Shown: in pieces, positions 5,444-50,690 of the stretch
Layout: every line of letters begins with the position of its first letter
Numbering within the stretch: the first letter of the stretch is position 1
Source of the DNA: Klebsiella phage KPP2018
DNA length: 64,000 nucleotides
Direction: 5' to 3' (one strand)
Sequence record: NC_110934.1
Notes under the pieces: generated by a model
Seen by the model: only the letters and a program-made list of their open reading frames with translations
Database searches by the model: none
What the model was told of the DNA's origin: nothing
Position numbers and translations under genes: made by a program

Positions 5444-5473
5444 TTGCTAAATTCTCTCGAAATCTAGTATAAT
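5444..5473 (+). promoter_or_regulatory. sigma70-type promoter P2 (TTGCTA-18-TATAAT), duplicate of P1 unit
   Basis: -35 TTGCTA at 5444-5449, -10 TATAAT at 5468-5473. The -10 plus leader GTATAATATATACATAAATTYGAGRGAGAAA is repeated 101 bp downstream of the first copy. Confidence 0.55.
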
Positions 5474-5580
5474 ATATACATAAATTCGAGGAGAAAACAA
5501 AAATTAAATTCTTCGATTATGAAAAGCTATACTTACTAGCTAGAGGAAATTCCGACCTAATTATTAAGCTATTCAAGAGA

Positions 5581-5865
5581 ATGCTTACAGAGCCTGATGC
5601 TCACCAATTATTGGTCGGTTCCTCATTCATTTTGAATGAATCAACAATAGTTGATAATCCAAATAAATTGTCTAATAGACAACTGGCAGAATATCTAGGA
5701 ATTTTAAGTCTACGAAATTATGCCGAATACAAGTTTACAAACGATCCTAGTTTGGACATACAATATGTTCCAGTATGGATACCACGTTTAGTAATCGACA
5801 CTAACCCACTAATCGCAATTAACAAATCGAAATTAATCTTTAAAGAGGAAATAAAATATGGCTAA
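5581..5865 (+). CDS. hypothetical protein
   Basis: 94-aa ORF ending with an ATGG overlap into the next gene. No motif recognised. Confidence 0.4.
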   Translation: MLTEPDAHQLLVGSSFILNESTIVDNPNKLSNRQLAEYLGILSLRNYAEYKFTNDPSLDIQYVPVWIPRLVIDTNPLIAINKSKLIFKEEIKYG

Positions 5866-6631
5866 GTCTTGGGGCGAAACTACTGGCGGTTCTAACGATA
5901 AAATCGAATTCCTGAAGTTCAACAACGGTATCACTCGTGTTCGTATCGTTTCTGGTGTTCTTCCACGTTATGTCTATTGGCTGACTAATAAAGAAGGTAA
6001 TGTAGCTCCTTTCGAATGTCTCCGTTTTAACCGTGACAAAGAGAGCTTTGTTCGCGGTAAAGCTGATCCGGTTCATGAGATGGGCTTCTTCGAGAAAGAG
6101 CTGGATAAAGATGGTAATCGTGTTCCGCTGAAACCGAAGAAAAACTATATCGCTTTTGTTATCGACCGCTCTGATAACAAACTGAAAGTAATGGAAGTCA
6201 AGGCTACTATTCTGAAAGGCATCCAGTCTATCATGAAGCAGTTGAATCTGGCAACTCCGTTTGATATTGATATTTCTATCGAGAAAAAAGGTAAAGGTTT
6301 CGATACTGAGTATGATGTACAGCAGATTGCTGCTATGCAGTTCCAGATTAAGCTGCAAGATCCTAACAGTGCAGAATCTAAGCAATATGCTGCAGATGTA
6401 GATCTGATCGGTGAAGCTATGTGTGATGAAGATGGCGACATCATTAAGTTCGAAAAAGTTCCTTCTCTGGAACAAACTTATCCGGTTCCTACCTATGAAG
6501 AGCAGAAAGAAGCAATTCAAGCCTTCATGGAGGGTCGTGAGAATAAAGATGATGATGCCAAATCTGGTAATAGCAATGCAGGCTCCCAGAAAGGTATTGA
6601 CACAGAAGCTGCAAGCGATCTGGACGACTAA
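5858..6631 (+). CDS. ssDNA-binding protein-like (acidic C-terminal tail)
   Basis: RBS AAAGAGGAAATAAAATATG. 257 aa with acidic C-terminus ...EAASDLDD, typical of SSB tails. Sits in the replication module and is followed by a strong terminator. Confidence 0.5.
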   Translation: MAKSWGETTGGSNDKIEFLKFNNGITRVRIVSGVLPRYVYWLTNKEGNVAPFECLRFNRDKESFVRGKADPVHEMGFFEKELDKDGNRVPLKPKKNYIAFVIDRSDNKLKVMEVKATILKGIQSIMKQLNLATPFDIDISIEKKGKGFDTEYDVQQIAAMQFQIKLQDPNSAESKQYAADVDLIGEAMCDEDGDIIKFEKVPSLEQTYPVPTYEEQKEAIQAFMEGRENKDDDAKSGNSNAGSQKGIDTEAASDLDD

Positions 6632-6637
6632 TAAATA

Positions 6638-6662
6638 GAGGGGCTTCGGCCCCTTTCTTTTT
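6638..6662 (+). terminator. rho-independent terminator
   Basis: GGGGC-TTCG-GCCCC hairpin followed by TTTCTTTTT. Confidence 0.8.
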
Positions 6663-6667
6663 AACCA

Positions 6668-7645
6668 ATGAGAATATTATTTAGTGCTGATCATCATATC
6701 AAACTAGGACAAGATAAAGTTCCAAAGGAATGGCAGAAGCGTCGCTTCCTGATGCTGGGAGAACGGTTAAATGATATATTCCATAATCATAACTGTGATC
6801 TTCATATTGCTGGTGGTGATATACTTGATGTTGCCGACCCGTCGTCAGAAGAAATAGAACTGCTTGAACAGTTCATGTCAAGACTTGACCATCCAGGCAA
6901 AATCTTTACTGGAAATCATGAAATGTTAACAAAAACCATTTCATGCCTATATCATTATGCAGGAGTTATTAATAAAGTAACGAGTGGTAAGTGGGAAGTA
7001 ATTACTAAACCATATCGTTCCCCTGAATTTGATATTGTTCCGTATGATGAGATCCATAAATCTAAGTGGAAACCATCTGAATCAAAACTATGTTTCACGC
7101 ATGTTCGTGGTGAAATCCCTCCACATGTAAAACCAGAAATTGATCTAACTAAGTACAACTGTTATGATACTGTAATTGCTGGCGATTTACATTCTTATAC
7201 TAATAGCCAGACTATCGGATCTACTAGACTCCTCTACCCAGGGTCTCCATTAACTACATCGTTCCATAGAGAACGCACAAAAGGTACAAATGGTTGCTTT
7301 ATCATTGATACCGACACATTAAAAGTAGAATGGATTGAATTAGGGGATTTACCACAACTGATTCGTAAAACAATCGGAGCTGGTGAAGAGATGGAACCTA
7401 GTGATTATGATCGTGTAGTCTATGAAGTTACTGGTGACGTTGTTCAATTAAAGTCTATCAAAAACTCTGATTTATTAGATAAGAAGATTAACCATCGAGT
7501 TACTAAAGACGCTAAGTTAAATCTTGTTGATCTTGATATGTTAGGTGAACTTGAACTTTACTTCCGTGAAGTCGAGAAGCTATCTCAAGGCGACATTGAT
7601 AGAATCTTGGCTAGAGCTGCGAAATATGTCAAAGATTACAATTAA
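6668..7645 (+). CDS. SbcD/Mre11-like nuclease (T5 D12-like)
   Basis: Calcineurin-like phosphoesterase motifs: ILFSADHH, AGGDILD, GNHE. Confidence 0.8.
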   Translation: MRILFSADHHIKLGQDKVPKEWQKRRFLMLGERLNDIFHNHNCDLHIAGGDILDVADPSSEEIELLEQFMSRLDHPGKIFTGNHEMLTKTISCLYHYAGVINKVTSGKWEVITKPYRSPEFDIVPYDEIHKSKWKPSESKLCFTHVRGEIPPHVKPEIDLTKYNCYDTVIAGDLHSYTNSQTIGSTRLLYPGSPLTTSFHRERTKGTNGCFIIDTDTLKVEWIELGDLPQLIRKTIGAGEEMEPSDYDRVVYEVTGDVVQLKSIKNSDLLDKKINHRVTKDAKLNLVDLDMLGELELYFREVEKLSQGDIDRILARAAKYVKDYN

Positions 7646-9464
7646 GACACTAAAATTTAGTAACGTTATGTCTTACGGTAAGGACATCGTAATTCATTTC
7701 GATAAGAATCCAGTTACTCAACTGATTGGTGGCAATGGGCTGGGGAAATCCACCATCGCTACTGTTATTGAAGAACTCTTCTATAATAAGAACTCACGTG
7801 GTATTAAGAAGGATGCTCTGTTCTCTTGGTCTTCTCCGAAAAAAGAGTATGATATGCACGCTTACTTCTCGAAAGATGAAGATGAGTACGAACTGCATAA
7901 AGTAGTTAAGTCAACTGCTAAAGTAACTCTTATTAAGAATGGAGAAGATATTAGTGGACACACGGCAACCCAAACATACAAGATGATTGAAGAGATTATG
8001 GGAGGTGACTTCCAAACGTTCACCAAACTAATCTATCAATCAGTGGGTTCAAATCTAGACTTTCTAAAAGCAACAGATGCGACACGTAAGGCTTTTCTTG
8101 TTAACTTGTTCAATCAAGAACAGTACAAAGAAATGTCGGAAACTATTAAGGCTGACCGTAAAGAAATAGCAAATACCTTAAATAATTTGCAGGGCCAAAT
8201 GGCTGTAATTACTAAAATCCTTAATGGAAAGAATAATCTGGGAACTTTGCAGGAACCTGTAGAAGTGCCTGAGTTTGATGAAGAACCATTAGCACAAGAA
8301 CTTACTGAATCGAAAATTAAGGCGGCATTAGCCAAGTCTCAAGAGGCTAATATTACTAAATTGCGTAATTTGGACAAAGCTGTACAAGTTGCCGAACAAT
8401 CTTTCGAGCCTTTCAAAAATTTGCCTGCGCCCACTGACCAAAACGAAGAGATCTCAAGTGTTACGCGTGACCTAACGATTGTGACCTCACGTGCGGGCGA
8501 AGTTAAGAAACGTTATCAGAAGTTCAAGCAAGAGGCTTCAAATACTGAATGTCCTACTTGTGGTACTCATCTGGATACAACTGCTGCTCAAAAAGCAATG
8601 GATATGGCTAGAACAGAATATGATCCTCTGTTCAAAGAGAAGCAATCTCTTGAAACCAAGCTAGAACAGCTGAAGAAAGAACAACTTGGGTACACTACGT
8701 ATATTAGAGCAAAGGATGCTTTGGATAAAGCAGTAGCAGCTAGAGACGAGTTCAAAAATTCAATGAGTGATGCTTCTTTTGAAGAACTCAATGTGCAAAA
8801 CCTACAGGTGCAAATCCGACAATTAGAACAGGAAATCGCTGATGGCCGTTCTAAGGTTGCAATTGCCAAAGAGCATAATGCAAATGTCGAATTAGCCAAT
8901 GCAAAATATAAAGCGAAACTAGAACAGATTGAGAAAGCTGAGGCAGAAATGTCTGAGATTACTTCCAAACTGGATGAGGTATCAGAAGCTGTTGCTGATC
9001 TCGATATTCTGATCGCTGCATTAAAGAATCTGGTAGGATATAAGCTAGAGCATAGTGTGAAAGTATTTGAAGAGCTTATCAATAAATACCTTTCCATTAT
9101 GACTGGTGGTAAGTTCGCACTTGGATTTGAACTTGATGAAACAAAATTACAAGTAGTAATCTTCAATGATGGAAATCGTACCAGTATGGAGAACTGCTCT
9201 ACTGGTCAACAAAGTCGAATCAACCTAGCAACTCTGTTAGCTATTCGAATGCTACTAACATCTATTAGTAAAGTTAATATTAATTTACTATTCCTTGATG
9301 AAGTAATTAGCTTTATTGATACTAAAGGACTTGATACTCTCGTTGAACTATTAAATGAGGAAGAAAGTCTAAATTCTATCATTGTTTCTCATGGGCATAC
9401 GCATCCATTGGCTCATAAGATTACTGTCAAAAAAGATGCAGAAGGATTTTCCTACTTAGAATAA
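7626..9464 (+). CDS. SbcC/Rad50-like ATPase (T5 D13-like)
   Basis: Chosen ATG at 7626 (MSKITIKTLKF...) overlaps the end of the upstream nuclease gene; the tracked 7545 start lies deep inside that gene. Walker A GGNGLGKST, long coiled coils, CPTCG zinc hook, signature STGQQSRINLA, Walker B LLFLDEV. Confidence 0.8.
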   Translation: MSKITIKTLKFSNVMSYGKDIVIHFDKNPVTQLIGGNGLGKSTIATVIEELFYNKNSRGIKKDALFSWSSPKKEYDMHAYFSKDEDEYELHKVVKSTAKVTLIKNGEDISGHTATQTYKMIEEIMGGDFQTFTKLIYQSVGSNLDFLKATDATRKAFLVNLFNQEQYKEMSETIKADRKEIANTLNNLQGQMAVITKILNGKNNLGTLQEPVEVPEFDEEPLAQELTESKIKAALAKSQEANITKLRNLDKAVQVAEQSFEPFKNLPAPTDQNEEISSVTRDLTIVTSRAGEVKKRYQKFKQEASNTECPTCGTHLDTTAAQKAMDMARTEYDPLFKEKQSLETKLEQLKKEQLGYTTYIRAKDALDKAVAARDEFKNSMSDASFEELNVQNLQVQIRQLEQEIADGRSKVAIAKEHNANVELANAKYKAKLEQIEKAEAEMSEITSKLDEVSEAVADLDILIAALKNLVGYKLEHSVKVFEELINKYLSIMTGGKFALGFELDETKLQVVIFNDGNRTSMENCSTGQQSRINLATLLAIRMLLTSISKVNINLLFLDEVISFIDTKGLDTLVELLNEEESLNSIIVSHGHTHPLAHKITVKKDAEGFSYLE

Positions 9465-9467
9465 AAC

Positions 9468-9950
9468 ATGGCCGTAGATAGTAGAGAGAAAGGTAAACGT
9501 GGTGAGTATCAGGTAAGAGATATTTTACGTGAACGTACAGGTCTTGAGTGGGAACGTGTCCCTGGCTCTGGTGCTTTTGGCCAGAGCCACGGACTGAAAG
9601 GTGACATCTACCTTCCACCACAAAGCGGACACATTAGTAAATACTGCTTCGAAGTTAAGTGGTATAAAGATGATAATATATCAAGTAATTTATTTAATGT
9701 TGGTGAATCCACTCTAGAGAAGTGGTGGCAGCAGTGCTCACGTGAAGGGGAGCAAATGAACTCCAAACCTGCATTAATATTCAAAAAAGACAGAGGACAG
9801 TGGTTAATAGCTTTGGATAGCTCAGACCCGATGGTTGACAACTTAATGAGTCGTACCCATATGGTGTTAAATAAGAAAGACATGGAAATCGTAATTGGTT
9901 TATTTGAGCCGTGGCTACATCATGCATCTGTTGAGGACTTAATTAAATAA
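9468..9950 (+). CDS. Holliday-junction resolvase-like PD-(D/E)xK nuclease (Hjc-like)
   Basis: KGKRGEYQVRDILRERTGLEWERVPGSG...GDIYL...FEVK resembles the Hjc G-x-ERE...SG...D...E-x-K pattern. Located after the SbcCD pair. Confidence 0.5.
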   Translation: MAVDSREKGKRGEYQVRDILRERTGLEWERVPGSGAFGQSHGLKGDIYLPPQSGHISKYCFEVKWYKDDNISSNLFNVGESTLEKWWQQCSREGEQMNSKPALIFKKDRGQWLIALDSSDPMVDNLMSRTHMVLNKKDMEIVIGLFEPWLHHASVEDLIK

Positions 9951-10825
9951 TGAGTAAATCCTGGGGAAAATTTATTGAAGAAGAGGAAGCTGAAATGGCT
10001 TCCCGTCGTAACCTAATGATTGTCGATGGAACTAACTTAGGCTTTCGCTTCAAGCATAACAATAGTAAAAAACCATTTGCCTCAAGTTATGTTTCCACTA
10101 TTCAATCTCTTGCAAAATCTTATTCTGCTAGAACTACAATAGTTTTAGGGGATAAAGGGAAGTCTGCATTCCGCTTAGAGCATCTCCCCGAGTATAAAGG
10201 GAATCGAGATGAGAAATACTCGCAGCGTACGGAAGAGGAGAAAGCGTTAGATGAACAATTCTTCGAATATCTGAGGGATGCTTTCGAGTTGTGTGAGACT
10301 ACATTCCCAACTTTCACTATTCGTGGTGTAGAAGCAGATGATATGGCGGCTTATATTGTTAAACTCATTGGACATCTGTATGATCACGTTTGGTTGATTT
10401 CTACTGATGGTGACTGGGATACTTTATTAACTGATAAAGTTTCTCGATTCTCTTTCACAACACGTCGTGAATACCATCTTCGTGATATGTATGAGCATCA
10501 TAATGTTGATGATGTAGAGCAGTTTATCTCTCTGAAAGCAATTATGGGTGATTTAGGGGATAATATCCGTGGTGTCGAGGGTATTGGGGCAAAACGCGGG
10601 TATAATATTATTCGTGAATTTGGTAATGTTCTGGATATTATTGATCAGCTTCCCTTGCCTGGAAAACAGAAATATATACAGAACTTAAATGCTTCGGAGG
10701 AATTGCTTTACCGAAACCTAATTCTGGTTGATTTACCAACCTACTGTGTGGATGCTATTGCTGCTGTAGGTCAAGATGTATTAGATAAATTTACAAAAGA
10801 TATTTTGGAGATTGCAGAACAATGA
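9950..10825 (+). CDS. flap endonuclease / 5'-3' exonuclease (T5 D15-like, 291 aa)
   Basis: Length equals T5 exonuclease (291 aa). Acidic metal-binding clusters (IVDGTNL, GDKGKS, EADD, TDGDWD). H3TH-like GIGAKRG. Confidence 0.85.
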   Translation: MSKSWGKFIEEEEAEMASRRNLMIVDGTNLGFRFKHNNSKKPFASSYVSTIQSLAKSYSARTTIVLGDKGKSAFRLEHLPEYKGNRDEKYSQRTEEEKALDEQFFEYLRDAFELCETTFPTFTIRGVEADDMAAYIVKLIGHLYDHVWLISTDGDWDTLLTDKVSRFSFTTRREYHLRDMYEHHNVDDVEQFISLKAIMGDLGDNIRGVEGIGAKRGYNIIREFGNVLDIIDQLPLPGKQKYIQNLNASEELLYRNLILVDLPTYCVDAIAAVGQDVLDKFTKDILEIAEQ

Positions 10826-40395: not shown

Positions 40396-40546
40396 TTTGA
40401 CTTTTGCCAAATTTCATAAGATTACACATGGAGGTGTGTCCAGTGGCCCCCCAGATGAGAATGAGTCTCATTACCGCCCGGTACTTAGCAAGCTAATAGT
40501 CACGGCATGTTATCATTGCACACCGTGACTATTTCAATTTTAATTA

Positions 40547-41323
40547 TTACGCAACTTTTAATTTCTCGATATATTGTTGCGGGCTGCAACTATATTCCGC
40601 GCGTTCTTCCTCGGTCATACTTTCCCAACATAATTTCAAACGATCAACTAGGAACTGATAATCATTATCATCATCGAGAGATTCATCAATAAAGGTTTCA
40701 CCTATCAATGCCACGCCGATTGATAGAATATCGTTAATAGCTTGCGCGTCCAGCGTTTTAAATCCGTATGATGCCGCCGCTGATAGCACGCCTTTATGAT
40801 CATCAATCATTGTGAAATCAGCGTTCGGATATAGCTGTTTAAATAATTCAAAATAATAACTTTTATATACTGCGTCCTTACTGTGGTATATTTCGCTAAC
40901 TTTATCAGCTTCAAAATATTTATGCAGCGTGTCACGGGAAAACACGCGGATATTACTATCCCCACGCCCTCGTAAGCCTTGTTTGCGCAAATAATAATAA
41001 TCCGACTTGCTCATTAGTCGAGCGGTACAAATAATGTTTAAAGTATTTGCATCATTCATACATTGGCGCATATATTCAACTAATGGTAATAAAGTATCTT
41101 GCATAATTAAATCATGCTTACACGCTTCATTTTTATATTTATTTAAATTTAAATTCCCGTCGCTATCAAAGCAAGGTGCTACACGATGGAACGAATTAAC
41201 GATAGTGCCATCCAGATCCCAAATCATGACGCGGGAAATATGCGGGAAATTACGGGTAATATTCGTTTTAACTTGATTCATTTTGTTACGTTCTCCATTA
41301 AAGGGATTTAGTTTATCCAGCAT
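40547..41323 (-). CDS. dmp: HAD-family 5'-deoxyribonucleotidase (T5 Dmp-like)
   Basis: HAD motif I MIWDLDGTIV. Size about 29 kDa. Location in the pre-early block next to A1-like. Confidence 0.7.
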   Translation of the reverse strand: MLDKLNPFNGERNKMNQVKTNITRNFPHISRVMIWDLDGTIVNSFHRVAPCFDSDGNLNLNKYKNEACKHDLIMQDTLLPLVEYMRQCMNDANTLNIICTARLMSKSDYYYLRKQGLRGRGDSNIRVFSRDTLHKYFEADKVSEIYHSKDAVYKSYYFELFKQLYPNADFTMIDDHKGVLSAAASYGFKTLDAQAINDILSIGVALIGETFIDESLDDDNDYQFLVDRLKLCWESMTEEERAEYSCSPQQYIEKLKVA

Positions 41324-41361
41324 TACCCGCTATTTATAAGCGGGTAATAATAAATCAACTA

Positions 41362-41754
41362 TTAAAGACCATAAGCCAACGCATCAGCGATGAAGCTAAT
41401 ATCTTCGCCGGATACATGAGAATGAACACCCGCGCAGATATATACCTTTGCGCTCGATAGCTGATCATCAAAGCAAGCTGGACAAGGCGCGACAACTGCA
41501 AAGGCTAGACCGGATTTTACGGCGTCGATGATAATCGTTTCCTGCTTCACCGTATCAACATAAACGCCTGCGGCCTTGATGTGACTACTTGCGCGGCCTT
41601 GCGTATAGGCGAAAGTAGTGATCTGTAGCGCCTCGTTAAACTCGATTAAATCATCAACAACGTGACCGGCCTCGACGTGGTAGCGTTCGCCATTAGAATA
41701 AACTAGAACAATGGAAGATTGAGCGCGATCGAATGGGATATTTTGCTTTTTCAT
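41362..41754 (-). CDS. hypothetical pre-early protein; weak resemblance to CDA-fold zinc deaminases
   Basis: 130 aa. Contains HVE ... 63 aa ... PCPAC, reminiscent of H/C-x-E ... PCxxC zinc ligands, but spacing is longer than canonical. RBS ATTAATTGGAGTTATAAACATG. Confidence 0.5.
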   Translation of the reverse strand: MKKQNIPFDRAQSSIVLVYSNGERYHVEAGHVVDDLIEFNEALQITTFAYTQGRASSHIKAAGVYVDTVKQETIIIDAVKSGLAFAVVAPCPACFDDQLSSAKVYICAGVHSHVSGEDISFIADALAYGL

Positions 41755-41819
41755 GTTTATAACTCCAATTAATTTAATAAGGGGTATAAGCGGGGTATAT
41801 ACCCCGCTTATAAATTTAA

Positions 41820-43484
41820 TTATGCGAAAAATTTGCCGTTTTTAAAGTCAATCAAAGTGCGCTGGCCGTTTGCATATGTAATTAAATGCGTTTGCGTCCA
41901 GCTTGACGCGCCAACGTTGTAGCCCATATCGAGGGAACCAGCGACGCCAGCGGTATAAACGCCGCCGTATATGCTGGCGGTGTGAGTGTGCCCCGTGTTT
42001 AACTTGCCCAATTTCTTAAATTGCTTCGGATTGCCACGGCTGCCGTTAATGCCGTTGTGACCGTGTACGCCGCACTCAATGCCTGCAATCTTGAAAGATT
42101 GGTCAGTGGTCAGGAATATGGCGTTAAACTCGCAACCTGCAACCGTACGCAGCGCATAATCTAGCACGTTGAAAGTATCGTCATGATCACCGATTGCCGC
42201 GTAAATTGCAGCATTCAGGCGGTGATATAGTTCCGCGTTGGCGGGGTCGTCTTTGATGTTAGCATTACGATCATCAAGCCAACGGGATAGCGCCAAATCG
42301 TGATTCGATTCGACAATGATCGTTTGACTAAAATCGCGCTCCATTGACTCCAGCACGCGCCCGGTATCGATGAGATCATCCAGAACTTTATCACGTCCGG
42401 CGGCATACTGTTTTGCTAGGAATACACCGGATGCACGGTTATGATGATTGCGCGATGTAAAATCGTGAACGTCATGGATAAACTGATATTTTGGTTTAAG
42501 AATATCAAGCAAGCTATTTTCGCCAGCCCATGACGCAGCGGCGCAATCATCATCCAATTTTTCCGCATGAATATCGCCATACTGCAAGCCTAAAACATGC
42601 CCCGACGTTTCAAAGCATCCGGCGGGGGTCGCGCAAATATTCAAATCGTAAAACATGCCGCTTTCATCCATCGTTTCAAGCTGGCGAACAAAAAATTCAC
42701 CGTCTTCGTCGAACTCGACAATAAGCGCACCGTAATTATGCAGCGCTTCGGCTTTTTGCCCTGCTTTTTGCTGAATGTAGTTTTTGAGTGTTGCCGTTCC
42801 GGTTGAATACATGCGGCGCACTACTTCACCTTTGAGAGCTGGGACACTTTCGGCGGTAATTTTAGCGTGACCAATTGCCAGACCTTCAATATTTAAAGCC
42901 GTTGCAGTTTCTGCGAATCCAGAAAGCGGATAATCTGCCGTTGGCAAAACATTAATTTCAGCCATGAAAGCAAAACGGCGATTATTTAAAAACACGTTTT
43001 TGCTGCAAATATATTTATCAAACGCGGAATCATATTTTACACCGTCAGCGCCTTCACCATTCTGGAAGCCGTTTTTATTATAAATATACTTAGAAACAAG
43101 CAAATCAGCGCCGATAAATTTAGCATATTGTTCAAGCGAGGCTAAAAAGTTTTTATGCGGGAAAGTATTATTCTGAATCGATGTAATAATAAAGCGTTTA
43201 CCTTGTTTGACTTCCCACTGTTCCACGGTACTAGAAACAATCCCAGCCGCTTCGGGGCGCTCGTCGTTTTTAATAGCTTTTACAGCTTTCGCCGTTTTTG
43301 GTTTCGCTGGTTTATTTGCTTCCAACCAATCGCAAATTGCTGTCGAGTGTTTTGCAGTATCGTAAACCGCTTTCGAAATATCGTCGCATACTTCCAGTTT
43401 AGTGGCGCGCAGACGTTTACCGTAGAAATTAAAGTCAGCGGCTAGTTTCATGATAGCGGTTTGTTTTTCTGCGGAAATAATCAT
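41820..43484 (-). CDS. A1: A1-like pre-early protein (metallophosphoesterase-type nuclease, 554 aa)
   Basis: Calcineurin-like motifs GDIHAEKLDDD, GNHD-like NHD..., GHTHTASI. Size near T5 A1 (556 aa, as I recall). Start moved to ATG at 43484 (MIISAEKQ...) with RBS TAATGGAGTTTATTATTATG; the tracked 584-aa start lacks an RBS. Confidence 0.7.
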   Translation of the reverse strand: MIISAEKQTAIMKLAADFNFYGKRLRATKLEVCDDISKAVYDTAKHSTAICDWLEANKPAKPKTAKAVKAIKNDERPEAAGIVSSTVEQWEVKQGKRFIITSIQNNTFPHKNFLASLEQYAKFIGADLLVSKYIYNKNGFQNGEGADGVKYDSAFDKYICSKNVFLNNRRFAFMAEINVLPTADYPLSGFAETATALNIEGLAIGHAKITAESVPALKGEVVRRMYSTGTATLKNYIQQKAGQKAEALHNYGALIVEFDEDGEFFVRQLETMDESGMFYDLNICATPAGCFETSGHVLGLQYGDIHAEKLDDDCAAASWAGENSLLDILKPKYQFIHDVHDFTSRNHHNRASGVFLAKQYAAGRDKVLDDLIDTGRVLESMERDFSQTIIVESNHDLALSRWLDDRNANIKDDPANAELYHRLNAAIYAAIGDHDDTFNVLDYALRTVAGCEFNAIFLTTDQSFKIAGIECGVHGHNGINGSRGNPKQFKKLGKLNTGHTHTASIYGGVYTAGVAGSLDMGYNVGASSWTQTHLITYANGQRTLIDFKNGKFFA

Positions 43485-43573
43485 AATAATAAACTCCATT
43501 AAAGGGATAAGGTTAATAACGGCAATATTGCCAAATATAACGCCTCGAATAATAGGCGTTATAATTTGCAACA

Positions 43574-43819
43574 TTAATTTAAAGGCATAAGGCTAGAACT
43601 AACACCACAAACAACGGCGGCAATAAAACAAATCAGACCTAAACGCTTCGCCAATCTAGATTTACGTTTAAAATAATACGAATCTAAATCATTTTGAAAA
43701 TATGCGAACAATAACGAGGCCGCCATAATAAATAGTCCTAGAATCAATGATTCAGTAGGGTAAAAGATCATTTTAAAAACTCCAGTTAAAGGGAAATTAT
43801 AGTGGGGAATAATCCCCAC
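43574..43819 (-). CDS. small membrane protein (81 aa)
   Basis: Two predicted TM helices. RBS ACTGGAGTTTTTAAAATG. Confidence 0.5.
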   Translation of the reverse strand: MGIIPHYNFPLTGVFKMIFYPTESLILGLFIMAASLLFAYFQNDLDSYYFKRKSRLAKRLGLICFIAAVVCGVSSSLMPLN

Positions 43820-43828
43820 TATTTAAAT

Positions 43829-44235
43829 TTATTCACCTGCGGCCTGTTTTACTTCATCGGCAACGCCTAACAGCTGCGCCACGGCGTCCAGCGTTTCCAG
43901 TTTCGCGCTTTCAAGGCTTGCCAGATCATCAGCGTCTTTGATAATGCCGGAATCAATAGCGTGTTTTGCAATTACGCGCACATAGTGAGCTTTACGGATT
44001 GAGCTACCGCCGCCAACTTTGCGCGGCTTATCGCTCTTCTGATAGGCTTTTGCGCTGGTCAATTTTGAGCGAACGGATACGGGGAGGCCGCACCAACTGC
44101 TTTCGCAATCTCTTTTAAACCGTCGCTATTTGCAAAATCTAAACCGTTTTCATTGATTAACTGCTGGTACATGGTAACAGCTTTCTGGGTGTTTTCTTCA
44201 TTCCAGGTGAATTTTGCGGTTTTTGCGTTAGTCAT
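43829..44235 (-). CDS. split A2-sized pre-early gene (58-aa N-terminal ORF 44059-44235 and 77-aa C-terminal ORF 43829-44062 in -1 frame)
   Basis: Upstream part has strong RBS TTGGAGTTTATATCATG and stops at 44059-61. Downstream part is open from 44197 in the -1 frame. U UUA AAA heptamer at 44114-44120 lies in the overlap. Fused product about 127 aa. Confidence 0.4.
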
Positions 44236-44332
44236 GATATAAACTCCAATTAATTTAATTTAAGGGATTAGATTAACTAATGTTAATCGTTATATTCCCC
44301 ATATTTCAGGGGAATATAAAGTTAACACTAAT

Positions 44333-44584
44333 TTATAATACAGCTTCCCATTTTTCGTTGCGTTGAACAACCTTTACAACGTCGCCGGATTTAACGCGAA
44401 CGTTATAAATCGGCTTGCCGTTGTTACTGCGTTCTGTTTCAGCGTATACCGCATCGATTGTATCGAACGGCATAAGCGCCGCGCCTTTAATACGTTCGGC
44501 TTTTCCGGTTAACTCATCCGTTTTAGTAACGAAAGGAATAAAAACGGATTGACCAATTTTCGGCGCATTAGTAACGTTTTTCAT
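44333..44584 (-). CDS. hypothetical pre-early protein (83 aa)
   Basis: RBS ACTGGAGTTTATACCATG of the same family as the other pre-early genes. Confidence 0.5.
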   Translation of the reverse strand: MKNVTNAPKIGQSVFIPFVTKTDELTGKAERIKGAALMPFDTIDAVYAETERSNNGKPIYNVRVKSGDVVKVVQRNEKWEAVL

Positions 44585-44813
44585 GGTATAAACTCCAGTT
44601 TATTCAGTGGATTGTTTCGCATTACCTGCTAAAAAGTATCAGGTAATAAGAAAAAATCCGCTCGCCATTATAAAATCAATTTAAAGAACTCCACGAAGGC
44701 CGCTATATCCCGTTAGGGGGCGGGGCACATTATGGTAAGTGCCGACCGTCAAATTGTATCAAGTTATCGCTCTTGTCGAACTGGGTACATCTTAAAGCCT
44801 ATCGGCTGGGGTG

Positions 44814-45014
44814 TCAAACAGTTTTTTGCGATTTTTTATAATTTTCCTTCAGGTCAATCATAATATTTCGCCAGACCATTTCCAGACCTTGCTGGCGGCC
44901 TTTCTTGTATTGCTTAAATCGGTATTTTACCGATCTTTGCGCTACTGTCAACAAATTTTTTGTTCTGCTGTCCAGTGCCTTGCTAGGTTTACCAGTGATT
45001 AAAAGCGTTTGCAT
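44814..45014 (-). CDS. small basic protein (66 aa), possible DNA-binding
   Basis: Lys/Arg-rich. TAATG-coupled to the upstream 52-aa ORF. Confidence 0.35.
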   Translation of the reverse strand: MQTLLITGKPSKALDSRTKNLLTVAQRSVKYRFKQYKKGRQQGLEMVWRNIMIDLKENYKKSQKTV

Positions 45015-45172
45015 TATTTGAGATCCTCCAAAGCGTATAAACCTTTGCCATCATTGCAGATTATTACTGCTTCTGAATGATTGGCATAGTATTCGTTTGC
45101 ATTCTTTACCCATTGCTCGATCTTTTCGATCGTGTCGTGGGTAGCTGGATGATCGTTATATATTGTTGTCAT
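45014..45172 (-). CDS. small hypothetical protein (52 aa)
   Basis: ATG at 45172 with RBS AAGGAATCGACGATATG. Below the ORF-track cutoff. Confidence 0.3.
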   Translation of the reverse strand: MTTIYNDHPATHDTIEKIEQWVKNANEYYANHSEAVIICNDGKGLYALEDLK

Positions 45173-45862
45173 ATCGTCGATTCCTTATAATGTAATAAGT
45201 TTACCGCCGATAGGCTTTAAGATATACCCAATTTTTAAAGAGCGCGGCGGTAAACTTCCCGCCGTGTAGTTCGTCATTGCCGCCCTACGAGATAAATAAT
45301 AACAAACAACGAAAAAGGCGCAACCTTATTTTTGTAAAGAAATGTAAAGACAAACGCCACCGGACACCGTGCGGCGACCTGGGCGCAGCGCGTTAAAATT
45401 AAAAGAAACGGGCGCGCGAATACCACAAAACATAGCAGATAAGCAAGTAATTTTTTCATTTATATTTGCTTTGCCCTACTTGACAAAATCTAAAAAGCTC
45501 ATGGCAGCGATAAACGGCTTATCCCCTTATGATGGGATGGCTAAAAACTTTATTGCGTTCTAGGGCGTTTTAGGCGCATTCTAGCCTTGTTGATAACTTA
45601 TCCCCAGAAGCAAAAATGAAATTTTCCTAGTTATCCACTTGACTTTTATTTTCCAGTGGATAACTACTTATTTTATAAAATAAATTAATTGACTTTTATT
45701 TGTTAGTATGCATCGGAAAGATAGCAGACTATTAATCACTAGGATGATGGTCATGCTGGTGGATTGTAACGGCCTGAATTATTAGCAGACTATTAATCAC
45801 AGAAAAACTCATTAGCCAACTAACTATTTCATGATATATAATATACTTATAAATTAATGAGA

Positions 45863-45945
45863 AATAATAACTATAAGAAATCATCACCAGTATAATAACA
45901 ACTATAAGAAATCATCACCACTATAATAATAACTATAAGAAACTA
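45863..45945. repeat. tandem direct repeat, about 27-bp unit x3 (TAATAACAACTATAAGAAATCATCACC)
   Basis: Three consecutive near-identical copies visible in sequence. Confidence 0.8.
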
Positions 45946-45954
45946 TCGGCCTAA

Positions 45955-46084
45955 GTGAGAACCACTATCATTTAAGTTATCCACAACGTTATCCACAGCA
46001 CAAAATAATTTGACACGATAGGCGGCGATATGAGGGCTTTTACACAGATTTATCCACAGGTTATCCTACTGTATAAATATACAG
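45955..46084. repeat. left arm of about 130-bp imperfect inverted repeat; 3 perfect DnaA boxes
   Basis: TTATCCACA at 45977-85, 45989-97 and 46050-58. Inner end carries the near-palindrome CTGTATAAATATACAG. About 75% identical to the reverse complement of 49725-49855. Confidence 0.75.
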
Positions 46085-46350
46085 GGTAAAAAGGCAGTGT
46101 TAACAACTGCAATCAATTTTAAGCGGCCTGAAACGCTTTCTAACGAGCTAAACGATGCGGGGCAATATTAAAGTAAAGACCCAACACGTCGCCCTGGTGG
46201 CTTCATCGTGTTTTGCTCTTTATTACACCGCTGCGCGGTTATCATAAAAATAGGCGTTAGGCAAGAAAAATAAAAAAGTAAAATAATCTTTGCCTATGCT
46301 AGAAAATTACCTTTATCATTCACTCACCGATTAACGAGGGAGGCCAACAA

Positions 46351-47328
46351 ATGCGGCTATATAAACCAGATAACGCAACCGTCTTAAAAGGTGCGCTGCG
46401 TAACCTGCTGGACGGTAGCAGAACAACCAGCATTAAGCACTTTGTTAACAAGGCCGAAGATATTCACCAAAATTTTTTTGATGATTTCGACGCCTATGAT
46501 ATGAGTAGTTTTTTGCAACTATATAAGCAAGGGGCAACCATTGTATTATATAATCGGGATAATCACCTGCTTACTAGTAGGGGTCCGGATACCGATTTCA
46601 TAATCGTAAAAGGTAGTATAGTAAAAGCCTATGATACTGGGGCGGGCTTAGAAGTTTTTTCAATAGAAAACTATGAAGCCAACCCCAATGATCTTTATGA
46701 TGTAGAAAATTTTCTCGATTCATTTTGGCGTTATTTATCAGTTGGCTGGAATCGGTCGGATTCTGATGGGTATCGTTTTGCGGCTGTAATGGCGTTTGAT
46801 GATGATGGCAATTTTTTGCTACCGTCGGAAATATACCCCTACGTATATGATGGGGATATAGAAAGCGCGGGCTTTTCTTTCTGGAAGGAGAAAGATCAGC
46901 CCATTGACAACACGGAAAAACATACTGTAAATTCTAGCACTCAAACTACTGAAAACAAAGGAAAAAATGCCATGACCAAGATCGCTAATATCGTTGCCGC
47001 CAATAAGTCTGCCGTTGTAAATGCTGCAAAATTGGAAGCGGGTAAAATTGCACTGACTCAAATTACGAAAGTAGTGGCTAAAAAAGCACCGTTCATGATC
47101 AAAGGCTATATTGATACGCCGATTGGTCGGGTAGTGATCGCTAACCTGCTAAGTGTAGCGGTTGACCAGTACGCCCCGAGTAACCAGAAAGCGAAAGCGG
47201 TAGCAAGCGCGGCAATGGAAGCGGCAATGTTAGAAATGGTGCAAAGTTTTAACATCGCTGAGATGATCGATGAAATGGTAAAAGGTATCGATATTTCTAC
47301 TTTTACCAATAACACCGAAAACGAGTAA
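46351..47328 (+). CDS. hypothetical protein (325 aa), first gene of IR-flanked cassette
   Basis: RBS GAGGGAGG before the ATG. No motif recognised. C-terminal half is Ala/Lys-rich and helical. Confidence 0.5.
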   Translation: MRLYKPDNATVLKGALRNLLDGSRTTSIKHFVNKAEDIHQNFFDDFDAYDMSSFLQLYKQGATIVLYNRDNHLLTSRGPDTDFIIVKGSIVKAYDTGAGLEVFSIENYEANPNDLYDVENFLDSFWRYLSVGWNRSDSDGYRFAAVMAFDDDGNFLLPSEIYPYVYDGDIESAGFSFWKEKDQPIDNTEKHTVNSSTQTTENKGKNAMTKIANIVAANKSAVVNAAKLEAGKIALTQITKVVAKKAPFMIKGYIDTPIGRVVIANLLSVAVDQYAPSNQKAKAVASAAMEAAMLEMVQSFNIAEMIDEMVKGIDISTFTNNTENE

Positions 47329-47393
47329 TAATAACTAGCGGGGATTGTTACCCCGCTTTACTATTCCCTTGATAATTAATAGGAGGCTAATTA

Positions 47394-47888
47394 ATGGCTG
47401 AAGAAAAATATGGCTTCTCACTGGGAGAAGTGAGCACGGCAAAACATGATATGATCATTTTAGTCGATTGTCATACTGGCTATTGCGGGGAAGGGAATAC
47501 CGAGGAATATTTTGTTCCTGCGGGTACGGATCTGGACGCTCTCGCTCATGAAATGGCTATTGATAATGCTTCTCGTTTCGGTAGCGATGGCTATGAAGAC
47601 GAGGAAACTGGCGAATGGTATGAAAATGAAAACGTATATGCAAGCCTTTATCATTATCAATTAAGTAAATCCGGCACATATGTAAACGGCGGTGATCCTA
47701 TTAATTCCGTCATGAAATTAATTATTAAACACGGTGGCGTCGAGATAATTGATAACAAAGCGGTAATATATGCAAACCGATTAAAACAGCTTGTTTATAT
47801 CCCTGATAGTACCCGATGGGATGAATACGCCGTTTTGCATGACGAATTGAAACGATGTTTCAATGTTGAATCCTTACAAGTAGTTTAA
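47394..47888 (+). CDS. hypothetical acidic protein (164 aa)
   Basis: RBS TAGGAGG before the ATG. Glu/Asp-rich. Confidence 0.5.
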   Translation: MAEEKYGFSLGEVSTAKHDMIILVDCHTGYCGEGNTEEYFVPAGTDLDALAHEMAIDNASRFGSDGYEDEETGEWYENENVYASLYHYQLSKSGTYVNGGDPINSVMKLIIKHGGVEIIDNKAVIYANRLKQLVYIPDSTRWDEYAVLHDELKRCFNVESLQVV

Positions 47889-47961
47889 TGTAAAGTTTTG
47901 TAAAGGTCGCCTTTTATGGTGGCCTTTTTTGCTATAATGCCTTTACACCGTTTGAGGACGG

Positions 47962-48225
47962 TTGAAAATTTTCCCAAAAATTTGGAGGCTTAAAATGGTT
48001 GCATATTCTTCTTCTGACGCTCTTTTCACTGGAAAAGGCTGGGTATCTAATCGCTGGATTATTCAAGAAATGGTGCAAGAATACGGCATTGCTAAAACTT
48101 ACACTACCATTCAGGCGCTTTATGATAATGATCAAATCGATCAGCAAACGGCGGGCTTTTTGCTGGACACGCTGAAAGCGGAACACTGCACTAAAAAGCA
48201 AGCGGCAAAAATTATTTTAATGTAA
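47962..48225 (+). CDS. hypothetical protein (87 aa)
   Basis: Preceded by -10-like TGCTATAAT at 47928-47936. RBS TGGAGG. Confidence 0.45.
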   Translation: MKIFPKIWRLKMVAYSSSDALFTGKGWVSNRWIIQEMVQEYGIAKTYTTIQALYDNDQIDQQTAGFLLDTLKAEHCTKKQAAKIILM

Positions 48226-48274
48226 TTAATAAAGGGGCGAAAGTAACGCCCCACTAACTAGGGGAGTATTACAA

Positions 48275-48424
48275 ATGATTATTTTTCGAGCTATTCTGGC
48301 GGGTATCTTGGGCGCTATTTTATCTTTGTTTGCAATAGCTTTCGATGTTCACGCGGTTATTATCGGCGCGGGTATCGCTGCATTTTCTTATCTGCTGGGC
48401 TGCATGACTAGTAAAGGAGAATAA
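48275..48424 (+). CDS. small membrane protein (49 aa)
   Basis: MIIFRAILAGILGAILSLFAIAFDVHAVIIGAGIAAFSYLLGCMTSKGE: two TM segments. RBS GGGGAG. Confidence 0.35.
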   Translation: MIIFRAILAGILGAILSLFAIAFDVHAVIIGAGIAAFSYLLGCMTSKGE

Positions 48425-48426
48425 AA

Positions 48427-48639
48427 ATGATCCGCAACGTTTCTCTTGCACGTTCGAAAGGCTTTAAGCTGGTGGATGCTAACACGTTCGAGCGGGAAGA
48501 TTGTAAAATCGAATATGTAGCACGTAACAAAAATGCCTTTCGTGTTACTGAGAAAAAATTTGATAAGCGCGGCAACGTGATCGCTGAAACGGTTAAGCAC
48601 TTTGCCACCTTTTACGCTGCGTTTCGTGGGGTACTATGA
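48427..48639 (+). CDS. hypothetical protein (70 aa)
   Basis: RBS AAAGGAGAATAAAAATG. Basic. Confidence 0.45.
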   Translation: MIRNVSLARSKGFKLVDANTFEREDCKIEYVARNKNAFRVTEKKFDKRGNVIAETVKHFATFYAAFRGVL

Positions 48640-48776
48640 AAAGCGTTATCGTTATTGCCCTTGCAATGGTTGGCGGTTTTACCGCCACCTTATTCAAAAA
48701 TGACCCCATTTCATTGGGGATCTTTATGTTATTATCTGGCTATCTAATTGGGAGGTTGTCAAATGGTTATTTATGA
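48636..48776 (+). CDS. small membrane protein (46 aa)
   Basis: MKSVIVIALAMVGGFTATLF...: TM peptide. ATGA-coupled. Confidence 0.3.
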   Translation: MKSVIVIALAMVGGFTATLFKNDPISLGIFMLLSGYLIGRLSNGYL

Positions 48777-49107
48777 GGGCAATCGTTTTGTTGCTAATTG
48801 CCGTCCTGCATTATTAGCAAACTACTTAAATCAGCTTTCCCCAGCTTATAAGGGTGTTATTAATATTTATGAGGGCAAGGCGCATTATAAAATCAATGCG
48901 GTCGTTGCCCGTGAACTAGCATTTCAATTTTTGACCTTTGCATCTTGTGATATTCAGGTCATGGGGGAAGCATTAATTGCAGAAAATGAAGATGATTTTA
49001 TTAATATTTTCCGCAAGATATGCACCGAGCGGCTGATAATGAAAGGCGCGTATATTCAATCCACGGCTGATAGTATTGAAACAGCGTTTCGAAAGGTGGC
49101 GCAATGA
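48763..49107 (+). CDS. hypothetical protein (114 aa)
   Basis: ATG at 48763 preceded by GGGAGG. The tracked 48748 start lacks an RBS. Confidence 0.45.
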   Translation: MVIYEGNRFVANCRPALLANYLNQLSPAYKGVINIYEGKAHYKINAVVARELAFQFLTFASCDIQVMGEALIAENEDDFINIFRKICTERLIMKGAYIQSTADSIETAFRKVAQ

Positions 49108-49262
49108 AAAAGTTTTTAATAGCTGGCATGTTTCCGTTGTTGCCTTATGTAATTTGCTGGGCTTTATACGCTCATGGCGCTAGTGTTCCCGCTGTGGCTT
49201 CATTTGGTGTATCGGCGGGCTTTCTAGCTGGACTATTAGCAAGCGTATACTTACGCAAATAA
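49104..49262 (+). CDS. small membrane protein (52 aa)
   Basis: MKKFLIAGMFPLLPYVICWALYAHGASVPAVASFGVSAGFLAGLLASVYLRK. ATGA-coupled. Confidence 0.3.
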   Translation: MKKFLIAGMFPLLPYVICWALYAHGASVPAVASFGVSAGFLAGLLASVYLRK

Positions 49263-49281
49263 TTAATAATGGGGCGTTATT

Positions 49282-49476
49282 ATGAGCAATAAAATTGTTG
49301 TAACCAAAATCAGTACAATGGTTGATGTTTTTTACGTGCCCGATACGCCGGAAAACCGACAAGCGGTCGAGCGTGGAGAATATGATAAAGTGATTTATGA
49401 TCACGATGGTTATTATCAGCATTTAGTGGATTCCTACGGGGAGGAGGAGAAGATCACGCATCGACTACCAGACTAA
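49282..49476 (+). CDS. hypothetical protein (64 aa)
   Basis: Last ORF of the + strand cassette. Confidence 0.4.
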   Translation: MSNKIVVTKISTMVDVFYVPDTPENRQAVERGEYDKVIYDHDGYYQHLVDSYGEEEKITHRLPD

Positions 49477-49724
49477 TAATCACGGGGCGCAACTATCAGG
49501 AAGTGCCCCCAATTCTCAAATGAGAATGATTCTCATTTGACCGCGCCCGCGATGGTTAGCCTGCTAATGGTTAGGGTGTTACGTGTCGCCTTGTGTGATC
49601 GTTAGCGTGCTAACTAATTTTCAAGCCTCCTTCAATTTTGCCCTTGTTTTAGTATCCCCAACAAAATTAAACGCGTTAGAATGCGTTTGAGAGCGTTTTA
49701 ACGCTATATTAGAATTATTCACTG

Positions 49725-49855
49725 CGTAGGAATACTGTATATTTATACAGTAGGATAAGCTGTGGATAAGTCTGTTGATAACGCTTCAAAACGGCTAGAA
49801 TTTTGTCAAGTCAAATCGTGCTGTTAGTAAGTCTGTGGATAACTTAAATAACAGT
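49725..49855. repeat. right arm of inverted repeat; DnaA boxes in opposite orientation
   Basis: TGTGGATAA at 49751-59 and 49824-32. One-mismatch box TGTTGATAA at 49763-71. Inner-end palindrome CTGTATATTTATACAG at 49725-40. Confidence 0.75.
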
Positions 49856-49861
49856 GTTTCT

Positions 49862-50035
49862 CACTTCCGTTCTTAAATGAGAATCATTATCATTTGCATT
49901 TCACTATCTAACTAATAATCATTCCGCTTTTTAAATGAGAATCATTCCGCTTTTTAAATGAGATTGATTCTCATTCCGCTTTTTAAATGCGAATTATTAT
50001 CATTCTCATTCCGCTTTTTAAATGAGAATGATTCT
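49862..50035. repeat. tandem array (5 copies) of about 24-bp unit TTCCGCTTTTTAAATGAGAATCAT
   Basis: Copies begin near 49862, 49922, 49944, 49970 and 50007. The unit contains the half-site AAATGAGAAT of the palindromes at 49519-49541 and 40448-40466. Confidence 0.8.
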
Positions 50036-50053
50036 TATTATCATTCGTATTTA

Positions 50054-50080
50054 GCGCAGGGCAATTGCCCTGCGCTTTTG
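50054..50080 (+). terminator. perfect-palindrome hairpin terminator (GCGCAGGGC-AATT-GCCCTGCGC + TTTTG)
   Basis: 9-bp GC-rich perfect stem, 4-nt loop, T-run on the + strand. Confidence 0.7.
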
Positions 50081-50690
50081 TGCAAATCCGACATTGCTCC
50101 ACGGGTGTTACGTGCGGGCGTGTATGTGCGAATCCGACAATCTTTGGTAGTGTGCAAATCCGACCCGAAAAATTTTTATAGTGTGCAAATCCGACAATGA
50201 ATTTTCCCAAAAACTCCAGCAATCTCGAACTGCGTTCGAATCCTGTGGGGTATGTGCAAATTCGACACGGTTTTTCTAGGATTAAGATGTGCAAATCCGA
50301 CAAGATTTTTGTGACTTCGATTGGAGGGTGTGTGATTGTGTGGGTTTGGGGAGAAGATGAGAGAGCGAGAGAAAATAAGGGAAGAAACTGGAGGAGCAGC
50401 ATGGGTGGCGTGTAACGCCTGATTTGCTGCGTTTTTGGGGAAGAGTTGAGAAGATTTGGGTTAATTGGGCTTGGGGCGAGATAAAGTAAAATTTTATTAG
50501 CAAAATGGGGCAAAATAGCTTGACAAGTGAAAATTCCTGTGGCTCAGGTGCTGCGTACTTTGATACATGGCAGTGGTTTAACCTTAGCAATAATGCTGCT
50601 ATTTTCAGGAGATTATATGTGCCTAAAAACTTAGGCATTTGTGCAAATCCGACCATAAATTTCTAGAAACACAATGTGCAAATCCGACAG
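50080..50690. repeat. iteron array: 8 direct copies of GTGCAAATCCGAC(A)
   Basis: Copies at 50080, 50126 (GTGCGAATCCGACA), 50152, 50183, 50254 (GTGCAAATTCGACA), 50289, 50641 and 50677. All in the same orientation. Confidence 0.85.

Follow-up and report, generated by a model that had tools for sequence, protein, structure and literature searches.

We analysed a 64,000-nt stretch of Klebsiella phage KPP2018 (NC_110934.1; hereafter the window) and concentrated on a cassette of nine + strand genes bracketed by two inverted-repeat arms that carry boxes for the host initiator DnaA. Comparison with relatives showed the feature to be the T5-family inverted-repeat pair that frames a non-essential, variable pre-early accessory operon in the terminal repeat. 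The region matches T5-like phages at 80-95% identity in 465 records, with Salmonella phage SaI_NFG_5581 as the best (94%), and comparison with T5 places the terminal repeat at ~40424-50550 of the window, so that the cassette, whose neighbours are pre-early genes, belongs to the first-step-transfer (FST) DNA. The left (A2-proximal) arm, identified by inverted-repeat detection at 45953..46099 on the + strand, is the T5 IRC-spacer-IRD element (83% identity to T5 6098-6234, where the sub-repeats 6098-6136 and 6188-6228 have 51 nt between them). The right (distal) arm, at 49720..49866 on the - strand, is IRD'-spacer-IRC' (93% identity to T5 9396-9542). Within the injection-stop (iss) repeat region it is the element furthest to the left, and it lies at the left edge of the injection-stop signal as annotated (9140-10149 in T5).

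Each arm is 147 nt long, and the two are 74% complementary (109/147 by ungapped count; 76.5% identity over 132 nt by BLAST) and separated by 3620 nt. An earlier reading of the window, made from the sequence alone (the sequence-only reading), had described imperfect inverted repeats rich in DnaA boxes around a cassette in T5-type FST DNA, and on each of these points it was borne out. Its impression that such a layout had gone undescribed was mistaken. Davison 2020 (bioRxiv 10.1101/866236), building on Heusterspreute 1987, Wang 2005 and Davison 2015, reported that the IRC-spacer-IRD and IRD'-spacer-IRC' repeats are 131 bp long, keep a constant spacer of 52 bp and carry eight DnaA boxes, arranged as four pairs with 3 bp inside each pair, and that they enclose coding sequence that is highly variable and transcribed in the opposite direction; the layout is conserved in 25 T5-like phages, and some genera lack the proximal arm. 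The same work proposed that membrane-bound DnaA on the boxes stops DNA injection. The layout is real but already known. The window shares with the T5 FST repeats the position in the terminal repeat, an inverted pair of ~131 bp (arms of ~131-147 nt), eight boxes in four pairs, the constant spacer, arm-by-arm orthology and a variable operon transcribed in opposition; it differs from T5 in having five perfect boxes rather than three, and the genes g2, g6 and g8, which the T5 cassette lacks.

All five perfect TTATCCACA boxes of the window lie within the arms (45977, 45989 and 46050 on the + strand, 49761 and 49834 on the - strand). Only 0.67 were expected and none of 100 shuffles reached five or more, in agreement with the earlier view that their number is beyond chance. 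When relaxed boxes are included, each arm contains two pairs, with 3 bp between the boxes of a pair and 61 nt from the start of one pair to the start of the other. In the left arm, the outer pair (45977..45997, +; boxes at 45977/45989) consists of two perfect TTATCCACA boxes and the inner pair (46038..46058, +; 46038/46050) of the relaxed-consensus TTTTACACA at 46038 and a perfect box; in the distal arm, the inner pair (49761..49781, -; 49761/49773) joins a perfect box to TTATCAACA at 49773, and the outer pair (49822..49842, -; 49822/49834) a degenerate TTACTAACA at 49822 to a perfect box. The eight boxes are thereby five perfect, two with one mismatch or relaxed consensus, and one degenerate. 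An accessory cluster at 45588..45663 (no strand assigned), equivalent to T5 'Repeat Region 1', holds four one-mismatch DnaA-like boxes, not the three first counted at 45590-45680; it varies among relatives and is found in 14 of the 39 close loci that we compared, 38 of which cover the cassette. A TTGACA conserved in the spacer of each arm has no usable −10 box at 16-18 nt, and a promoter in the spacer was rejected. Loading of host DnaA on both flanks is a reasonable prediction, the same as the published hypothesis.

The inner end of each arm carries a 7-2-7 palindrome (CTGTATAAATATACAG at 46069-46084 and CTGTATATTTATACAG at 49735-49750), as had been noted, and this palindrome is a predicted near-consensus LexA (SOS) box. 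Searching the window with the 20-mer consensus TACTG(TA)5CAGTA returned only TACTGTATATTTATACAGTA and TACTGTATAAATATACAGGG, against 0.01 matches expected. We also scored the boxes on a LexA matrix derived from the 18 authentic E. coli operators listed in PMC3009722, whose own leave-one-out scores range from 6.6 to 24.4 bits with a median of 19.1. The distal box TACTGTATATTTATACAGTA (49733..49752, no strand assigned), with one mismatch to the consensus, reaches 26.2 bits, higher than all 18 authentic sites, and the proximal box TACTGTATAAATATACAGGG (46067..46086, likewise unstranded), with three mismatches and its CTGT-N8-ACAG core at 46069-46084, reaches 21.9 bits; a hit of at least 20 bits appeared in 0 of 200 simulated 64-kb sequences. 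The longest identical run between the arms, 24 nt, is the SOS-box core, and no other run is as long as 20 nt.

The boxes are well kept among relatives. The distal box scores 26.2 bits in all 38 close loci that cover the region, and the proximal box shows a CAG>CAA change, with loss of the invariant CAG, in 4 of the 38. In ten phages of seven host genera, from Escherichia to Vibrio, the LexA box lies on the cassette side of tandem DnaA boxes. Both cassette borders carry LexA and DnaA boxes in the window, T5, Sugarland, IME260, Erwinia KEY, Pantoea AAS21, Pectobacterium DU_PP_V, Proteus PL1 and Vibrio 234P1, while Vibrio cholerae phage JSF12 has them at the distal border only. The family-conserved core of the arm is TTATC[C/A]ACA-GAC-TTATCCACA-GG-TTATCCTA-CTGTATAWWTATACAG-TA, and the remainder of each arm drifts. 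Among 20 distinct boxes of at least 17 bits, neither CTG/CAG half-site varies at its core G and the flanking C is nearly invariant, variation is concentrated at positions that LexA tolerates, and positional information in the phage boxes and in E. coli LexA sites follows a similar profile (r=0.84). The box of Proteus phage PL1 has the same sequence as that of E. coli istR2/tisB, and a single position separates the Vibrio 234P1 core from the sulA core. In their CTGT-N8-ACAG dyad and in scores at or above those of authentic operators, the phage boxes resemble E. coli LexA operators. Unlike the operators of the LexA regulon, these predicted binding sites have no demonstrable promoter overlap and, in a phage that is strictly lytic, form an inverted pair separated by kilobases, each abutting tandem DnaA boxes; near them we found only weak consensus promoter hexamers, the known 011 promoter being ~200 bp off.

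In Davison 2020 the inner-end palindrome is one of several palindromes regarded as possible cleavage sites, and LexA or SOS is never mentioned. Nor did the T5 literature that we examined mention them, and literature searches turned up nothing of relevance; Heusterspreute 1987, Wang 2005 and Davison 2015 fall outside that scope and may already hold the observation. PMC12345140 does mention LexA, but its subject is a T7-like phage. The LexA sites of T5-like arms are probably, though not certainly, a new observation. Across the window, sites of at least 12 bits on the LexA matrix were in excess (ten, against 0.94 expected under a first-order model), which may be a compositional artefact of this simple null model; the best of those outside the arms, AGCTGTATACTTATCCAGAA at 2104-2123 (16.6 bits), overlaps a one-mismatch DnaA-like box at 2114.

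A different binder for the same sequences has to be weighed here. The palindrome and the boxes might be recognised by phage proteins, such as an A2 dimer or an A1-A2 complex, the resemblance to host consensus being incidental. A2, an essential dimeric protein that binds DNA and is needed for second-step transfer, has no known site, further conserved motifs with no known binder stand beside the boxes, and action of A1/A2 on the palindromes of this region has been suggested (Davison 2020). The injection stop, however, happens without phage protein synthesis, and the motifs are nearer the host consensus than most genuine host sites. Moreover, the arm motifs hold that consensus across phages in which A1 and A2 have diverged to 35-66% identity, where co-evolving sites should drift; the essential A1 itself falls to ~35%, with ~34-35% identity between the Vibrio phages and T5. 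We therefore consider binding by phage proteins distinctly unlikely.

The DnaA boxes have also to be considered as a possible DnaA-dependent replication origin or DnaA-titrating locus carried on the first-step DNA. Three tandem 31-nt AT-rich repeats (AATAATAACTATAAGAAATCATCACCAGTAT) lie at 45863-45955, directly outside the left arm, in a tract of 76% A+T; none is found at the equivalent place in T5. Such a tract next to clusters of high-affinity DnaA boxes with helical phasing would suit an origin, and several high-affinity 9-mers with fixed spacing and helical phasing are a likeness to oriC, datA and DARS. In contrast with those loci, the arms have no unwinding element or GATC cluster (we found no oriC-type 13-mers or GATC in 45300-46690 or 49597-50300), their box clusters stand with an SOS box and occur in two inverted copies, and no replication role is known for them. 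In addition, the 31-nt repeats are not shared with T5, the T5 origins lie near the genome centre, replication genes are not on the first-step DNA, and altering host initiation would be pointless because the host chromosome is destroyed within minutes. An origin or titration role is, in our view, very improbable.

Conservation extends beyond the arms. A motif on the inner flank, CCTGAAACGCTTTCTAAC at 46127..46144 on the + strand (family motif ~CTARAACGC..TTCTAAS), recurs as its reverse complement GCGTTAAAACGCTCTCAAACGCATTCTAAC at 49675..49704 on the - strand; both were recognised as cross-genus footprints. This motif (~CTARAACGCTCT.TAACGCATTCTAAS, also listed at 45555-45590) lies 35-60 nt inside each SOS box, in the Vibrio phages as well, and remains with the arm where the gene block is inverted (see below). 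Because it is conserved and stays with the arm, the fixed frame on each side of the cassette is longer than the 147-nt arm.

A 3.6-kb segment between inverted repeats could be a programmed invertible segment of the Gin/Hin/Cin or shufflon kind, flipping the cassette between two expression states, and the sequence-only reading had likened the architecture to an invertible or mobile module, or to a DnaA-gated regulatory island. The G segment of Mu and the C segment of P1 (Gin/Cin) likewise span ~3 kb between inverted repeats and occur in both orientations among related phages, and a homologous gene block does run in the opposite direction in Sugarlandvirus and Hongcheonvirus. The evidence against an active switch is nevertheless ample. 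None of the nine cassette proteins matched a recombinase or transposase in PHROGs or Pfam, the only Pfam hit being DUF7566 (g1), and the arms are only 74% alike, with no identical run beyond the 24 nt of the SOS-box core. Across the 38 close loci, each arm shares 81-98% identity with its positional counterpart and ~72-82% with its partner; since positional identity exceeds partner identity in every locus, there is no homogenisation and no chimeric arm, and concerted evolution of the arms was rejected on the same comparison (orthologous far above paralogous identity in every locus). The alignment to relatives proposed in the sequence-only reading gave conserved arms and variable gene content: the cassette is colinear in 38/38 close loci, with the arms 1.7-4.0 kb apart. 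We then compared a synthetic flipped junction, made of the left arm and the reverse complement of the right end of the cassette, with 50,697 phage records, and 0 of the 532 matched records covered the query on one strand beyond the native 67%. Finally, the Sugarland breakpoints fall within the conserved inner flanks. Unlike the Mu and P1 segments, then, the cassette comes with no invertase, its repeats have diverged, its orientation is fixed by genus and the breakpoints lie outside the repeats. A programmed invertible segment is extremely improbable.

An inverted-repeat-flanked transposable element, or another mobile cassette lodged in the terminal repeat, would account for terminal inverted repeats of ~130-150 bp with variable genes between them. 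Here again no transposase was matched, no target-site duplication was found around the arm-bounded unit, and the unit has the same location and polarity in every family member examined. The composite motif of DnaA box and SOS box occurs in T5-like genomes only and is absent from other viruses; a search of 185,579 species genomes returned a single hit, in a mis-binned T5-like contig, and the notion of a host locus mimicked by the phage was rejected on that result. The contig in question, RZZU01000077.1 (3015 bp, labelled 'MAG: Clostridia bacterium'), is a T5-like fragment whose two arms and shortened cassette share 80-90% identity with the window, and for this reason we take it as a binning contaminant. 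We give a mobile cassette practically no chance, and both the active switch and the mobile element are effectively excluded.

What does vary over evolutionary time is the direction of the genes within the frames. Comparison indicates that Klebsiella (Sugarland) and Pectobacterium phages carry the g1-g2-g7-g9 block inverted as a unit, the frames being unchanged. In Sugarland and IME260, the homologues of g1, g2 and g7 keep their relative order on the A2 strand, with g1 at the distal end: Sugarland gp014 matches g1 with 38% identity over 322 aa (E=2e-54), gp012 matches g2 with 39% (E=1e-23), and gp011 matches T5.015, the counterpart of g7, with E=3e-8 and g7 itself with E=1e-7. Pectobacterium phage DU_PP_V has homologues of g1, g2, g7 and g9 in the same inverted arrangement. 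Erwinia KEY and Pantoea AAS21 show the T5 orientation and the same gene order, Proteus PL1 shows the T5 orientation for g1, its single detectable homologue, and the Vibrio phages have a divergent cassette with no detectable homologues of the cassette genes. The region of Types 2 and 3 had been described as 'replaced by other sequences read in the opposite direction' (Davison 2020); our comparison corrects this view of the Klebsiella and Pectobacterium accessory operon as unrelated to that of T5, as it is the same operon, inverted.

An inversion through the arms, with the crossover at the 24-nt SOS-box core, is predicted to swap the inner flanks. We compared 90-nt flanks with those of Erwinia KEY and obtained, for Sugarland and IME260, 65 vs 46 for proximal-to-proximal flanks, and 80 vs 36 and 72 vs 47 for distal-to-distal flanks. 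The inner flanks of Sugarland and IME260 are positionally orthologous to those of KEY, and inversion through the arms was rejected. Since Sugarland's flanks are orthologous position for position, the breakpoints are internal to the frames; the gene block between the frames has been inverted at least once in evolution, with breakpoints inside them. The sequence-only reading would have been refuted by a colinear cassette with no orientation variants in the family; such variants do exist, in Sugarlandvirus and Hongcheonvirus, but their breakpoints are in the conserved flanks and not in the arms. Sugarland gp013 (164 aa, 4286-4780) has homologues between the g1 and g2 homologues of Erwinia KEY and Pantoea AAS21 (9832-10296 and 5699-6163 in the respective records; 32% identity, E=3e-13) and none in the window or T5. 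On this distribution, the ancestral operon was probably larger than the g1-g2-g7-g9 core kept here.

Between the arms, all nine + strand open reading frames match phage protein families end to end, and their direction of transcription is opposite to that of dmp, A1 and A2, which confirms and extends to A2 what had been read from the sequence. The first, g1 (46351..47328, +; 325 aa, DUF7566), is by family match and T5 comparison a homologue of T5.011, which is toxic in E. coli. It is followed by g2 (47394..47888, +; 164 aa, phrog_6741), which has no T5 counterpart and is present in many relatives and in Sugarland (gp012); g3 (47995..48225, +; 76 aa), a homologue of T5.012; and g4 (48275..48424, +), a hydrophobic peptide of 49 aa homologous to T5.013, which is toxic and compromises cell integrity in T5. 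Next come g5 (48427..48639, +; 70 aa), with 99% identity to T5.014; g6 (48636..48776, +), a hydrophobic peptide of 46 aa (phrog_19184); g7 (48763..49107, +; 114 aa), with 94% identity to T5.015, whose locus tag is that of the Ung-dependent nickase of Mahata 2021; g8 (49104..49262, +), a two-helix hydrophobic peptide of 52 aa (phrog_35622); and g9 (49282..49476, +; 64 aa), a homologue of T5.017. The proposed coupling of genes by ATGA overlaps was seen at 48636 (g5 and g6) and 49104 (g7 and g8). Four tiny membrane peptides had been counted; only three of the small proteins, g4 (49 aa), g6 (46 aa) and g8 (52 aa), are hydrophobic enough to look membrane-embedded.

RefSeq and PHROG 4227 place the description 'endonuclease nicking abasic sites generated by host Ung' on T5.014 (70 aa), while in Mahata 2021 and Annor 2026 the gene of the active Ung-dependent nickase is T5.015, by locus tag the neighbouring 114-aa protein. 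The genes compared are g5 (48427-48639) and g7 (48763-49107) here, and 8086-8298 and 8300-8644 in T5. The label has the look of an off-by-one annotation error copied into many records.

A consensus scan predicted a cassette promoter, TTGCCT-18-TATCAT, at 46290..46319 on the + strand, position-equivalent to the annotated T5 promoter upstream of 011; the T5 annotation gives a regulatory feature at 6411-6489, and the promoter upstream of 011 has been experimentally characterised. A terminator-like hairpin follows g1 (47337..47357, +), at the place where T5 has an annotated terminator after 011, and a second one follows g2 (47902-47927). The gaps of the cassette gave no Rfam match near gathering scores for a non-coding RNA.

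Several further observations concern the terminal repeat as a whole. The window contains a single terminal-repeat copy with other phage sequence on both sides (T5.018-type early genes to the right), so the assembly is probably permuted, with the two terminal repeats collapsed into one. The homing endonuclease hegG, located between two repeat regions in T5, is absent. To the right of the distal arm, eight irregularly spaced copies of TGTGCAAATCCGAC at 50074-50688 are probably Davison's DRD repeats of the iss region. Fur-box-like palindromes are also frequent: allowing up to five mismatches to GATAATGATAATCATTATC, which we take to be the Fur-box consensus, there are 20 matches against 5.3 expected, 16 of the 20 in the terminal repeat. 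They include sites at 40456-40475, 40651-40675, 49521-49535 and 49873-50042, with a perfect 7-1-7 core, TGATAATCATTATCA, at 40656-40670 within dmp; the iss palindromes TGAGAATNATTCTCA are one symmetric position away from a Fur 7-1-7. We found no literature on Fur-like sites in this region.

The arrangement of these signals bears on what the arms may do. The main rival to a role in DNA entry is a transcriptional gate or insulator, in which the arms would be operators for control or insulation of the toxic operon by LexA and DnaA, with no part in entry; the bound proteins might be roadblocks to transcription reading into the cassette or out of it, or might tie expression to the SOS response set off when A1 breaks down the host DNA. 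In its favour, the cassette side is where the LexA box is always found; the operon is bracketed by the frames at every length (1.85-4.6 kb from frame to frame) and in either orientation; and the cassette genes 011, 013 and 015 are toxic. Complexes of DnaA with DnaA boxes can block RNA polymerase in an orientation-dependent manner. Promoter-like hexamers also overlap or abut both SOS boxes (46103..46076 on the - strand and 49687..49715 on the + strand), but as consensus matches they are weak, and in T5 the distal candidate has a poor −35; we found no transcription-start map in the literature. Furthermore, the characterised T5 011 promoter is ~200 bp downstream of the arm and not over the SOS box. 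In T5-type phages and in Vibrio JSF12 the operon has the universal distal box at its 3' end, and in Sugarland at its 5' end; this difference between T5-type phages and Sugarland is inconsistent with a simple promoter-operator role. A gate or insulator is possible, although we think it rather doubtful.

The explanation that we hold to be probable, if by no great measure, is that the known T5 repeats are landing pads for host factors, likely with a role in the injection pause. Each arm would be a fixed cis-acting site for DNA-binding proteins that the host already has when the naked phage DNA arrives in the cell, with two DnaA-box pairs 61 nt apart, then the cassette-side LexA box and then the conserved inner-flank motif. 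DnaA and LexA, present before any phage protein, would be expected to occupy the arms on entry. A nucleoprotein complex of the two might then assemble on the distal arm and, in what is the weakest step of the proposal, could conceivably mark or anchor the boundary of the injection pause at a time when no phage protein has yet been made. The proximal arm would be a second copy, weaker and dispensable, that delimits the other side of the toxic accessory operon.

Published work and the mapping of a deletion are consistent with this division between the arms. Davison 2020 places the first-step DNA shear point, as calculated, 156-286 bp to the right of the distal arm; that arm is described as universal in the family and has the better-kept LexA box of the two. 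A second FST band near the proximal arm, an older report cited through Davison 2020, suggests that both arms may be able to act as pause sites. A T5 mutant lacking hegG to 017 is viable and forms smaller plaques (published). We mapped its junction primers and located the deletion at ~T5 5394-9160, where it removes the left arm and the cassette and keeps the right arm. Since this viable deletion retains only the right arm, the phage can do without pairing of the inverted repeats, and the distal arm becomes the candidate for the functional copy; we infer that the distal arm is primary and the proximal arm a lesser copy.

Several points weigh against the landing-pad explanation. The occupancy of the arms by DnaA and LexA is predicted from sequence; a BF23 paper (2023) and a PNAS paper (2026), later works in which Davison's account recurs, call the role of the site untested or the mechanism poorly understood; and in principle the palindrome could be bound by a phage dimer such as A2 instead of LexA. 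It is also unclear how proteins bound to DNA already inside the cell would stop entry. Cytoplasmic DNA binders would be expected rather to ratchet the DNA inward. Lastly, the left arm is dispensable and 3.6 kb separate it from the stop point, and for that reason an injection stop alone leaves the symmetric layout unexplained. A more specific version of the landing-pad explanation, in which the arms would carry genuine LexA operators that together with the DnaA boxes form the host-factor part of the injection stop, LexA and DnaA loading on the incoming distal arm and helping to hold the DNA at the 8% pause, and in which LexA self-cleavage, upon shredding of the host chromosome by A1, would then help to license the second step or would switch expression of the operon, seems to us unlikely. 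For a milder version, in which LexA would bind the arm sites in vivo with some effect on phage fitness, we see the chances as evenly balanced.

What this work adds to the known layout is the SOS box, the inversion of the operon and the mapping of the viable deletion, all of them computational or derived from the literature. Why entry of T5 DNA halts at 8%, and how it starts again, has been an open question for more than 50 years, and DnaA is the only host factor proposed so far. The conserved LexA box in every arm, together with a deletion that leaves only the distal arm, would narrow this question to one ~150-bp region and two host proteins.

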